Shown here: positions 27,671 to 49,255 of the stretch, piece after piece
How positions within the stretch are numbered: position 1 is the first letter of the stretch
Layout of the letters: the number at the start of each line of letters is the position of its first letter
DNA from: Escherichia coli
GTDB lineage: Bacteria > Pseudomonadota > Gammaproteobacteria > Enterobacterales > Enterobacteriaceae
Assembly (NCBI RefSeq): GCF_002854065.1
Contig: NZ_CP024147.1
DNA: 64,000 nucleotides
Direction: 5' to 3' (one strand)
The notes under the pieces: model-generated
What the model saw: the letters and a program-made list of their open reading frames with translations, nothing else
Database searches by the model: none
What the model was told of the DNA's origin: nothing
Position numbers and translations under genes: made by a program

Positions 27671-28249
27671 TTAACGCGCGTTCTGCTTGATGAATTCGTG
27701 AATGCTGGTGTCCTGAGACATATCAGCGATGGTATCGGTCAGCACACTGTTAACCGCATCGGCGATATTTTTGTTGGAGGCCTGGAACGCACCTTCAACG
27801 TTGTAGCTGGCACGATAGTTTTTGGTCATTTTGTTGCCATTCTGCGCGGTAGCGATGATGGCGATATCCGCTTTGGTAGCGATGTTGTAGCGCACGTTGC
27901 CCTGGGACACGTCAGCATACAGTTGGCTAACGATGATTTGCAGATTAACCGGGCCATTCGGACCAACCATGTAACCACGCGCGGTCATCTGTTTTTCCAG
28001 CACTTCTTGCAGCAGGAAACGCAGATCGCGGGAGGCGGTCAGGGTAACGATTTGATTATCGCGGGTGACTTTTGCCAGCGCCTGATCGGTACGCTGATCG
28101 GCACCATTAATGCTTACGGTGACGCCCATCAGGCTTGGATCCTGCTGTGGCAGTGTAATCGTCGGGGAAACTTCAATAGTTGTTGGCGGTTTTGCGCATC
28201 CTGCAAGCATAAACAGAGCAACTAACGGGAAGAGGATTTTTTTGAACAT
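27671..28249 (-). CDS. yajG: Lipoprotein YajG
   Basis: ORF 27671..28408 trimmed to MFKKILFPLVALFMLAGC lipobox start (192 aa). Confidence 0.88.
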   Translation of the reverse strand: MFKKILFPLVALFMLAGCAKPPTTIEVSPTITLPQQDPSLMGVTVSINGADQRTDQALAKVTRDNQIVTLTASRDLRFLLQEVLEKQMTARGYMVGPNGPVNLQIIVSQLYADVSQGNVRYNIATKADIAIIATAQNGNKMTKNYRASYNVEGAFQASNKNIADAVNSVLTDTIADMSQDTSIHEFIKQNAR

Positions 28250-30546: not shown

Positions 30547-30580
30547 GGCCCGTCACCGCCAGGTGGTGGGCTTTTTTTTG
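30547..30580 (+). terminator. Terminator after tig
   Basis: GC-rich imperfect stem (CCCGTCACC / GGTGGTGGG) followed by T8. Confidence 0.55.
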
Positions 30581-30758
30581 TCATGAATTTTGCATGGAAC
30601 CGTGCGAAAAGCCTCTTTCGGTGTTAGCGTAACAACAAAAGATTGTTATGCTTGAAATATGGTGATGCCGTACCCATAACACAGGGACTAGCTGATAATC
30701 CGTCCATAAGGTTACAATCGGTACAGCAGGTTTTTTCAATTTTATCCAGGAGACGGAA

Positions 30759-35996: not shown

Positions 35997-38442
<2,446 letters not shown>

Positions 38443-42964: not shown

Positions 42965-46511
<3,547 letters not shown>

Positions 46512-46623
46512 ATAGCGCAATATTTCATCGTTGGTGCAAAAATGTAACGCACTGTGCACTGTCATAGTGCGTTTTCATTTTCAAACTTCTTAACTTCCTG
46601 CTCTCTTTCTCATTTTTCATTTC

Positions 46624-46639
46624 TGGCACACCGCTTGCA
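46624..46639 (+). promoter_or_regulatory. Sigma54 promoter (-24/-12) of glnK-amtB
   Basis: TGGCAC-accgc-TTGCA, exact GG-N10-GC spacing, about 55 bp upstream of glnK ATG. Confidence 0.65.
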
Positions 46640-46691
46640 ATATCTTCTTCGTGTAGCAGAACCATTACCGAATTCTGACCGGAGGGGATCT

Positions 46692-47030
46692 ATGAAGCTG
46701 GTGACCGTGATAATCAAACCATTCAAGCTGGAAGACGTTCGTGAAGCGTTATCTTCCATTGGTATTCAGGGCCTGACCGTCACCGAAGTGAAAGGTTTCG
46801 GGCGTCAGAAAGGGCATGCCGAGCTGTACCGGGGGGCGGAATACAGCGTCAACTTCCTGCCAAAAGTAAAAATTGATGTGGCGATTGCTGATGACCAACT
46901 CGATGAAGTGATCGATATCGTCAGTAAGGCGGCTTACACCGGAAAAATTGGCGACGGCAAAATCTTTGTCGCTGAATTGCAACGCGTCATTCGTATTCGT
47001 ACCGGCGAAGCCGACGAAGCGGCGCTGTAA
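46692..47030 (+). CDS. glnK: Nitrogen regulatory protein PII-2
   Basis: ORF 46554..47030 trimmed to ATG 46692 (MKLVTVIIKPFKLEDVREAL...), 112 aa. Confidence 0.97.
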   Translation: MKLVTVIIKPFKLEDVREALSSIGIQGLTVTEVKGFGRQKGHAELYRGAEYSVNFLPKVKIDVAIADDQLDEVIDIVSKAAYTGKIGDGKIFVAELQRVIRIRTGEADEAAL

Positions 47031-47059
47031 TCTCTGGCACACAGCAACAGGAACGAAAA

Positions 47060-48346
47060 ATGAAGATAGCGACGATAAAAACTGGGCTTGCTTCACTGGC
47101 GATGCTGCCGGGACTGGTAATGGCTGCACCTGCGGTGGCCGATAAAGCCGACAATGCGTTTATGATGATCTGTACTGCGCTAGTGCTGTTTATGACTATT
47201 CCGGGGATTGCCCTGTTTTACGGTGGGTTGATTCGCGGCAAAAACGTGCTGTCGATGCTGACGCAGGTGACGGTGACATTTGCACTGGTCTGTATTCTCT
47301 GGGTGGTTTACGGTTACTCGCTGGCGTTTGGTGAGGGCAACAACTTCTTCGGCAACATTAACTGGTTGATGCTGAAAAACATCGAACTGACGGCGGTGAT
47401 GGGCAGCATTTATCAGTATATCCACGTGGCGTTTCAGGGATCGTTTGCCTGCATTACCGTAGGCTTGATAGTTGGGGCGCTGGCGGAACGAATCCGCTTC
47501 TCAGCTGTGTTGATTTTCGTGGTGGTATGGCTGACGCTCTCTTACATTCCGATTGCGCATATGGTCTGGGGCGGTGGTTTGCTGGCTTCTCACGGTGCGC
47601 TGGATTTCGCGGGTGGCACCGTGGTGCACATTAACGCCGCAATCGCCGGTCTGGTGGGCGCGTATCTGATAGGCAAACGCGTGGGCTTCGGCAAAGAGGC
47701 GTTTAAACCGCACAACCTGCCGATGGTCTTCACCGGGACTGCCATTCTCTATATCGGTTGGTTTGGCTTTAACGCCGGGTCAGCGGGCACGGCGAATGAA
47801 ATCGCGGCACTGGCATTTGTGAATACTGTGGTCGCAACGGCGGCGGCAATTCTTGGCTGGATCTTCGGTGAATGGGCGCTGCGTGGTAAGCCTTCACTGC
47901 TGGGGGCGTGTTCTGGCGCGATTGCCGGTCTGGTCGGCGTGACGCCAGCGTGTGGCTACATTGGTGTTGGCGGCGCGTTGATTATCGGCGTGGTAGCTGG
48001 TCTGGCGGGCTTGTGGGGCGTTACCATGCTCAAACGCTTGCTGCGGGTGGATGATCCCTGCGATGTCTTCGGTGTGCACGGCGTTTGTGGCATTGTCGGC
48101 TGTATCATGACCGGGATTTTTGCCGCCAGCTCGCTGGGCGGCGTGGGCTTCGCTGAAGGTGTGACGATGGGCCATCAGTTGCTGGTACAGTTGGAAAGCA
48201 TTGCCATTACGATCGTCTGGTCCGGTGTGGTGGCATTTATTGGCTACAAACTGGCGGATCTGACGGTTGGCCTGCGTGTGCCGGAAGAACAAGAGCGAGA
48301 AGGGCTGGACGTCAACAGTCACGGCGAGAATGCCTATAACGCGTAA
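47060..48346 (+). CDS. amtB: Ammonium transporter AmtB
   Basis: 428 aa with signal peptide MKIATIKTGLASLAMLPGLVMA and 11-TM Amt fold. Confidence 0.97.
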   Translation: MKIATIKTGLASLAMLPGLVMAAPAVADKADNAFMMICTALVLFMTIPGIALFYGGLIRGKNVLSMLTQVTVTFALVCILWVVYGYSLAFGEGNNFFGNINWLMLKNIELTAVMGSIYQYIHVAFQGSFACITVGLIVGALAERIRFSAVLIFVVVWLTLSYIPIAHMVWGGGLLASHGALDFAGGTVVHINAAIAGLVGAYLIGKRVGFGKEAFKPHNLPMVFTGTAILYIGWFGFNAGSAGTANEIAALAFVNTVVATAAAILGWIFGEWALRGKPSLLGACSGAIAGLVGVTPACGYIGVGGALIIGVVAGLAGLWGVTMLKRLLRVDDPCDVFGVHGVCGIVGCIMTGIFAASSLGGVGFAEGVTMGHQLLVQLESIAITIVWSGVVAFIGYKLADLTVGLRVPEEQEREGLDVNSHGENAYNA

Positions 48347-48363
48347 CAAGCACTGCAAAAAAC

Positions 48364-48397
48364 AGCCGGACGGTTTTCACCTCCGGCTATTTTTTTA
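48364..48397. terminator. Bidirectional terminator between convergent amtB and tesB
   Basis: GCCGGA ... TCCGGC stem flanked by A6 upstream and T7 downstream. Confidence 0.55.
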
Positions 48398-49255
48398 ATT
48401 GTGATTACGCATCACCCCTTCCTGAACGGTCGAGGCAACCAGTACGCCGTCCTGGGTATAAAACTCACCGCGCACAAAGCCACGTGCGCTGGACGCCGAG
48501 GTGCTCTCCACGCTATACAGCAGCCATTCATTCAAATTAAACGGGCGATGGAACCACATGGAATGGTCAATGGTGGCAATCTGAATCCCCGGTTCGAGAA
48601 AACCGATGCCGTGCGGCTGTAGAGCTACCGGCAGGAAGTTAAGATCAGAAGCGTAACCGAGCAGATACTGATGAACGCGCAGGTCATCCGGCACGCTACC
48701 ATTTGCGCGGATCCACACCTGACGATGTGGTTCTGCGACGTGACCTTTCAGTGGGTTATGAAACTCCACCGGACGGACTTCCAGCGGACGATCGCAGATG
48801 AATTTATCTTTCAGCACTGGCGGCAGCAGGTGCGCCAGCGACTGGGCGATTTGCGTTTCCGAAGGCAGGCCATCAGGCGCTGGCGCGGACGGCATTGTTT
48901 TTTGATGTTCGAAACCCGCTTCTGGTGCCTGGAAAGAGGCCGTCATATAAAAAATCGGTTTGCCGTTTTGAATAGCAGCAACCCGGCGGGCGCTGAAGCT
49001 GTTACCGTCACGCAGCGTTTCGACATCATAAATAATCGGCTTCTTACTATCGCCAGGGCGAAGAAAGTAGCTGTGAAACGAATGTACCAGCCGCTCTTCA
49101 GGGACGGTCTCTTTTGCAGCATACAAGGCCTGACCCACGACCTGGCCGCCAAACACCTGGCGTAAACCTAAATCTTCACTCTGGCCGCGAAAGAGTCCTT
49201 CCTCAATTTTTTCCAGATTTAACAATGTCAGTAAATTTTTTAGCGCCTGACTCAT
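48395..49255 (-). CDS. tesB: Acyl-CoA thioesterase II
   Basis: ORF 48395..49273 trimmed to ATG 49255 ([24 protein letters not shown]...), 286 aa. Confidence 0.93.

Follow-up and report, generated by a model that had tools for sequence, protein, structure and literature searches.

Promoters that are read by sigma54 need an enhancer-binding protein, and glnK is reportedly activated only when NtrC-phosphate is high. The promoter of the glnK-amtB operon, glnKp, is already known and well studied in Escherichia coli K-12, where the literature shows that sigma54 and NtrC occupy the spacer between mdlB and glnK and that glnK mRNA depends on NtrC. In nitrogen-starved cells, peak 1 of the NtrC ChIP-seq is glnK-amtB; deletion of glnG leaves glnK mRNA not readily detectable, and complementation restores it (PMC4066584). 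By gSELEX, both the RpoN holoenzyme and NtrC bind to the mdlB-glnK spacer (PMC8743547). The activity of glnKp depends exclusively on activated NtrC, the specific NtrC activity being ~400-fold higher on ammonium starvation, and the proposal that glnK is activated only at high NtrC-phosphate is cited in the same work (PMC3870243). The sigma54 site itself has been placed by ChIP-seq in K-12, in which the 17-mer CTGGCACACCGCTTGCA is site OS03 with a fold-above-threshold score of 18 (PMC4591121). The start of OS03 is predicted 42 nt before glnK and 19 bp downstream of the motif centre, and Bonocora et al. give the status of the glnK promoter in EcoCyc as ‘predicted’ (PMC4591121).

The E. coli promoter glnAp2 provides a second point of comparison. 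It combines a sigma54 −24/−12 core with tandem upstream NtrC sites on the same helical face and is activated by looping, and the same arrangement is predicted for glnK. The NtrC sites of glnAp2 are centred at −140 and −108, 32 bp apart. In comparison, the enhancer of glnK is closer to the start (centred at ~−87 and at ~−107 to −120), and its sites are imperfect, consistent with activation only at high NtrC-phosphate. Unlike glnAp2, glnKp has no overlapping sigma70 promoter, a scan for sigma70 promoters across 46300-47200 finding none, and no governor-type low-affinity sites are seen in its spacer.

A third described property of glnKp concerns read-through. In synthetic constructs, K-12 glnKp silences the downstream gene in read-through transcripts via a CT-rich anti-Shine-Dalgarno segment (Levy et al., bioRxiv 10.1101/086108).

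The mdlB-glnK spacer and its sigma54 core promoter

The window, that is, the whole stretch of 64,000 nucleotides analysed here, contains the complete 180-bp mdlB-glnK intergenic region of the E. coli chromosome at 46512-46691, as delimited by the ORF coordinates. The mdlB gene ends with the stop codon TGA at 46509-46511, and glnK begins with ATG at 46692. According to the ORF list, glnK extends over 46692-47030 and amtB over 47060-48346, both on the + strand; the K-12 annotation names them glnK and amtB, and the controlled operon glnK-amtB spans 46692-48346 (+). In the RefSeq annotation of identical DNA, glnK is entered as ‘P-II family nitrogen regulator’. We conclude that 46512-46691 almost certainly carries glnKp, the sigma54-dependent, NtrC-activated promoter of the E. 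coli glnK-amtB operon. The sequence-only reading had recognised a nitrogen-regulated glnK-amtB operon here, which is borne out by the near-identity to K-12 glnKp, the published sigma54 and NtrC binding, and the dependence on glnG.

The comparison with characterised glnKp, which the same reading had recommended, reveals a nearly unchanged copy. The locus is the same, between mdlB and glnK, and no difference is seen in the UAS, the −24/−12 element, the leader or the Shine-Dalgarno sequence, the 17-mer being that of OS03. The only differences from K-12 MG1655 are two SNPs, 46612 A (G in K-12) and 46643 T (C in K-12), neither of which falls in a motif. Both are minority alleles in a small sample, in which six other E. 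coli strains and E. albertii all carry G and C. Across seven divergent E. coli strains, likewise a small sample, the bases of the UAS and of the −24/−12 element are unchanged. The 180-bp spacer is present at an identity of at least 95%, flanked by annotated mdlB and glnK, in 5423 of 5426 complete E. coli genomes, and a 401-bp segment spanning it also has matches of at least 95% identity in 5423 of the 5426. Spacers at least 99% identical to the version in the window are found in just 211 of the 5423 genomes.

Two open reading frames overlap the spacer, a GTG-started, 158-aa in-frame upstream extension of glnK (46554-47030) and a 46-aa ORF on the minus strand (46525-46665). Both are taken as mechanical ORFs because conservation of the spacer is limited to short motifs. 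An Rfam scan of 45500-48500 gives no family match in the intergenic region. Its sole hit is a sub-threshold match to Thr_leader at 48356-48442 on the − strand (28.8 bits against a gathering score of 55, E = 0.012), which begins in the convergent amtB/tesB spacer and runs into the 3' end of tesB. This match is most likely just a terminator hairpin.

The sigma54 core promoter CTGGCACACCGCTTGCA locates at 46623-46639 on the + strand, with the −24 GG at 46625-46626 and the −12 GC at 46637-46638. Within it, TGGCACACCGCTTGCA at 46624-46639 (+ strand) agrees with TGGCAC-N5-TTGCA at every specified position, and the GG and GC doublets are exactly 10 bp apart. The sequence-only reading had called this match exact, and it proves to be the sole exact one in the window on both strands, against 0.02 expected from shuffles. 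When two mismatches to the sigma54 consensus are allowed, the window holds 26 matches compared with 27.7 expected, which is background. The distance of ‘about 55 bp’ to glnK that had been given is a fair one: the ATG lies 52 nt from the last base of 46624-46639 and 68 nt from the first. Following the rule of PMC4591121, the predicted start falls at 46650, which puts the GC at −12 and the GG at −24. The finding serves as a positive control, in that an exact −24/−12 element was recognised by eye; in itself it is of little consequence, glnKp being a textbook NtrC/sigma54 promoter.

We scored the window with a sigma54 matrix made from 40 intergenic ChIP-seq sites of Bonocora et al. 2015 (PMC4591121), with two window sites left out. 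The glnK 17-mer tops the window with 16.8 bits and exceeds the median of the 40 ChIP-defined sites. The same score is attained by 28 of 100 random 64-kb sequences, so the sigma54 matrix score alone is not decisive. The earlier expectation that the motifs score above background therefore holds only marginally: the sigma54 site stands at the top of the window, with 28% of random sequences reaching as high, and the NtrC consensus stays at background. What distinguishes the sigma54 element is its exactness, its orientation and its position.

Other K-12 sigma54 ChIP-seq sites in the window are IA04 within yajG (28098-28114, +; TCGGCACCATTAATGCT), OS02 located 154 nt upstream of clpP (30578-30594, +; TTGTCATGAATTTTGCA), and IA05, antisense within acrR (60658-60674, −; TTGGCGCGTTTCTTGCG) (PMC4591121). 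Meanwhile, we notice the sequence CTGGCATTATTAATGCT in ybaV (38205-38221, −), which scores 16.6 bits, near the score of glnKp, and is not among the tabulated high-stringency ChIP-seq sites; it may be non-functional, or a sigma54 site of low stringency.

We also notice a 10-nt exact direct repeat, TCTGGCACAC, of which one copy (46622-46631) falls on the −24 element of glnKp and the other (47033-47042) lies in the spacer between glnK and amtB, just past the glnK stop codon. This latter copy is not followed by a correctly spaced −12 GC. At this copy, YTGGCACACAG is kept in Escherichia, Citrobacter and Superficieibacter. About 0.2% of the 10-mers in the window recur within 500 nt, and the repeat may be a coincidence.

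NtrC-type elements and their conservation

Upstream of the core promoter, the string of GCAC/GTGC repeats GCACTGTGCACTGTCATAGTGCG occupies 46549-46571. It contains the main NtrC-type dyad TGCACTGTCATAGTGCG (46555-46571), which is centred ~−87 from the predicted start and is supported by conservation and by the published occupancy of the spacer. The dyad matches TGCACCAnnnTGGTGCA at 10 of the 14 specified positions and departs from TGCACC-N5-GGTGCA by three mismatches; matches as good as this number 31 in the window against 33.6 expected, i.e. background. The exact core dyad GCAC-N7-GTGC occurs three times in the window, with 1.7 expected. The consensus scan with up to three mismatches was discarded as evidence, as it shows no enrichment in the window.

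Because the consensus match lies at the chance level, the case for NtrC rests on other evidence. A real NtrC site can be separated from the ~30 equal chance matches in the window only by conservation and binding data, and consensus alone therefore cannot call NtrC sites. We judged the sites by consensus together with conservation.

A second NtrC-like element, TGGTGCAAAAATGTAACGCA, extends over 46532-46551 and contains a perfect consensus half-site, TGGTGCA, at 46532-46538. From its sequence, two registers are possible. In the first, a candidate weak 17-mer, TGCAAAAATGTAACGCA (46535-46551), would have its centre at ~−107, 20 bp away from that of the main dyad; it agrees with TGCACCAnnnTGGTGCA at 9 of 14 positions, which is a background-level match. 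In the second, TGGTGCA would act as the right half of a site at 46522-46538, centred at −120 and 33 bp away, a spacing that resembles that of the tandem sites at glnAp2. TGGTGCA and AACGCA (46546-46551) keep a constant spacing to the main dyad in most Enterobacteriaceae, and TGCACy occupies the place of the upstream element in Yersinia, Rahnella and Acerihabitans. Besides the dyad and this element, inspection of the 180-bp spacer reveals no other NtrC-like sequence.

The sequence-only reading had described the repeats as motifs resembling NtrC half-sites. A better description is a single complete, conserved dyad of 17 bp at 46555-46571, together with a predicted upstream element at 46532-46551. 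The claim is upheld by conservation, the likeness of the dyad to the consensus being at the background level.

Between the dyad and the core promoter lies a T/C-rich spacer (46572-46622, +), which on direct reading includes the distal CT-rich segment CTTCCTGCTCTCTTTCTC; distal CT-rich segments have been reported for glnKp (bioRxiv 10.1101/086108). In the alignment, 46572-46622 is diverged between genera. By eye, no good match to an IHF site is seen between the UAS and the promoter. The NtrC ChIP bin U00096.2 471741-471821 (PMC4066584) corresponds to 46611-46691 of the window, which comprises the core promoter and the leader. The dyads are 40-120 bp further upstream, so that the bin by itself does not localise the binding site.

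In order to follow these motifs across species, we compared 79 proteobacterial loci encoding GlnK relatives, with one genome per species. A sigma54 site of at least 14 bits is found no more than 400 nt upstream in 60 of the 79 loci; the corresponding rates are 0.1% for shuffled upstream regions and 2 of 78 for control segments taken downstream. Of these 60 loci, 54 also have a GCAC-N7-GTGC dyad (one mismatch allowed) that precedes the sigma54 site by 30-200 nt, against 7% of shuffled zones. Equivalent dyads precede the glnK sigma54 sites in many genera, Pseudomonas among them. The gene upstream of glnK is mdlB in all 15 Enterobacterales compared, and the spacer, 180 to ~400 bp long, is mostly unalignable. 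Conservation stands out at three islands: the dyad yGCAC-N7-GTGCG, the TGGCA...TTGC element, and the Shine-Dalgarno sequence together with the start codon. Invariant in the 15 are AC at 46558-46559, GTGCG at 46567-46571, and both TGGCA and TTGC. At the level of sequence, this conservation lends strong independent support to the interpretation of the region as glnKp under NtrC control.

The distance between promoter and gene varies among these loci. In most loci of Pseudomonas and Stutzerimonas, the best sigma54 site lies ~160-210 nt before the glnK ATG (312 nt at the maximum, in one locus), not ~50. Such a distance implies that pseudomonad glnK probably has either a leader of far greater length or some element in between.

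Random sequence can reach the sigma54 matrix score, and NtrC consensus matches are at background, which would fit motifs that are functionless chance matches. We hold the probability of this to be negligible, and conservation and binding data already refute it. An exact sigma54 consensus is expected only 0.02 times per window, the motifs are kept at orthologous positions amid diverged flanks, 60 of 79 loci have a site where shuffled sequences have one in 0.1% of cases, and occupancy has been published from both ChIP-seq and gSELEX (PMC4591121, PMC4066584, PMC8743547). The motifs stand out by their exactness, position, conservation and published binding data, not by the NtrC score alone.

For glnKp, we propose the following sequence of events. 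The sigma54-RNA polymerase would rest on the −24 GG and −12 GC (46623-46639) as a closed complex, unable to open alone. Under nitrogen limitation, phosphorylated NtrC would bind to 46555-46571 and to the adjacent upstream element at 46532-46551 and oligomerise there. It would then reach the polymerase by looping out the ~60-bp T/C-rich spacer, and ATP hydrolysis would open the promoter. Transcription would start near 46650 and produce a 42-nt leader with a strong ribosome-binding site. As both NtrC elements are imperfect, the enhancer would be weak, and glnK would consequently be switched on only at high NtrC-phosphate, that is, in real starvation. In this scheme, we infer where exactly NtrC makes contact, where transcription starts and how the DNA loops.

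A terminator-like hairpin over the enhancer

Like canonical intrinsic terminators, the glnK spacer has an 11-bp hairpin (5 G-C pairs) and then a U-rich tract soon after a stop codon. The terminator scan identified AACGCACTGTG-CACTGT-CATAGTGCGTT followed by TTCATTTTCA at 46546-46583, overlapping the NtrC dyad. In the RNA, the terminator-like hairpin AACGCACUGUG-CACUGU-CAUAGUGCGUU (46546-46573, +) begins 35 nt past the mdlB stop and has an energy of −14.9 kcal/mol, and the U-rich tract UUCAUUUUCA follows, the whole structure covering 46546-46583. The fold of 101 nt has a z-score of −2.8. In contrast to canonical terminators, NtrC half-sites make up the stem and the U-tract (UUUUCAUUUUC) is not continuous; the terminator is putative.

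In the 15 Enterobacterales, we scanned for hairpins of −7 kcal/mol or lower that are followed by 8 nt with six T or more. A hairpin with a T-run is found in all nine Enterobacteriaceae species and in none of the six other Enterobacterales. The Enterobacteriaceae hairpins range from −13.5 to −19 kcal/mol and end in GTGCGTT, with the T-run directly after them in 9/9 species. The six Enterobacterales without the hairpin still have the dyad and the synteny with mdlB. The species were retrieved through GlnK, and the sample is thus unbiased for the hairpin.

Among the nine sequences, one pair is altered on both sides (C-G to U-A). We enlarged the set by a metagenome pattern search to 35 distinct variants, with 94% paired cells. 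The search pattern itself prescribed the five pairs at the outside of the stem and the four T that open the T-run. Two compensatory pairs are seen in this set (C-G to U-A and U-A to C-G), which may represent only two evolutionary events. None of 500 shuffles attains the observed score, a control known to be exceeded also by related sequences without structure. Moreover, the NtrC 17-mer has a conserved CA in its centre, where the consensus sets no constraint, and this CA pairs with the TG of TGCAC.

The hairpin and T-run are terminator-like, the NtrC 17-mer matches its consensus only at background, and the NtrC ChIP bin does not coincide with the dyads (PMC4066584). It could thus be argued that the GCAC/GTGC repeats are the mdlB terminator only, with NtrC acting elsewhere or not here. 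We consider this very improbable. The dyad yGCAC-N7-GTGCG is kept in Yersinia, Photorhabdus and Acerihabitans, and in Rahnella as an AGCAC variant, all of which are without the T-run or a long hairpin, and dyads recur upstream of glnK sigma54 sites in Pseudomonas and many genera. Furthermore, the 180-bp spacer is devoid of other NtrC-like sequence. A sigma54 promoter requires an enhancer-binding protein and glnK expression requires glnG (PMC4066584).

The reading of the region as glnKp with its NtrC enhancer can be extended, without being excluded, by a second use of the same bases. In Enterobacteriaceae, 46546-46583 may be both the NtrC enhancer as DNA and a putative intrinsic terminator of mdlAB as RNA, for which we see close to an even chance, if anything slightly less. 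The scan hit at its position past the mdlB stop, with its energy and z-score, suggests this double role, as do the presence of hairpin and T-run in 9/9 Enterobacteriaceae and 0/6 other Enterobacterales, the two two-sided stem changes with the high share of paired cells that no shuffle equals, and the conserved CA, which pairs although the NtrC 17-mer leaves its centre unconstrained. However, the hairpin potential is partly automatic, because NtrC half-sites are inverted repeats, and the limits given above on the pattern-fixed positions, the number of events and the shuffle control weigh against the double role as well. The T-run might rather help the DNA to bend for looping, and entries for mdlB and glnK are absent from the supplementary tables searched, those of two Term-seq papers.

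A literature search for mdlB, glnK and terminator found no paper linking them in the sense of such a double use, and the overlap of terminator and enhancer is the one lead at this locus that might be new. If it is true, a palindromic stretch of 28 bp would serve the activation of glnK as DNA and the termination of mdlAB as an RNA hairpin. The terminator would then form a first layer of insulation against read-through, placed before the published anti-Shine-Dalgarno layer and shielding glnK-amtB. This would be a neat case of dual coding at an operon boundary, and of insulation at the level of transcription for tightly silenced sigma54 genes.

Leader and anti-Shine-Dalgarno segment

The predicted glnK 5' UTR is 42 nt long (46650-46691, +) and carries the Shine-Dalgarno sequence GGAGGGG at 46681-46687. 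Among Enterobacteriaceae leaders, GAATTCTGAC-GGAGGGGATCTATG is kept. We notice that CGTGT, around +1, and GAATTCTGAC are both kept across these leaders despite a fully diverged enhancer-promoter spacer.

The proximal CT-rich anti-Shine-Dalgarno segment TATCTTCTTC (46641-46650, +) lies just upstream of the predicted start 46650 and includes it. In modelled read-through RNA, the pairing probability of 46643-46649 with 46682-46688 (GAGGGGA, most of GGAGGGG) is ~1.0; the same figure is ~0.5 in the modelled sigma54-initiated RNA starting at 46650. Compared with K-12, the helix between the anti-Shine-Dalgarno and Shine-Dalgarno sequences is predicted to gain one U-A pair from the T at 46643, which is position −7 and falls inside the CT-rich insulator segment as published. 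The locus thus resembles the insulator of Levy et al. in having a CT-rich segment before the start, and the native glnK Shine-Dalgarno sequence is predicted to be sequestered only in read-through RNA. It differs in being the native mdlB-glnK junction, as Levy et al. worked with synthetic constructs; nor is a terminator mentioned in their study.

Folding across species gives clear sequence-specific sequestration of the Shine-Dalgarno sequence only in Escherichia, one Enterobacter and Photorhabdus, and composition-matched shuffles already show a Shine-Dalgarno pairing of 0.6-0.84. The modelled anti-Shine-Dalgarno effect may be largely a feature of Escherichia, or may simply reflect base composition.

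On the side of natural variation, a single complete genome, NZ_OZ040756.1 (E. coli isolate 30859_5#287), carries an IS1 (annotated as an IS1 family transposase) in the glnK 5' UTR, with the break at ~46677. The IS1 separates the sigma54 promoter from the Shine-Dalgarno sequence, and the insertion would uncouple glnK-amtB from glnKp in this isolate.
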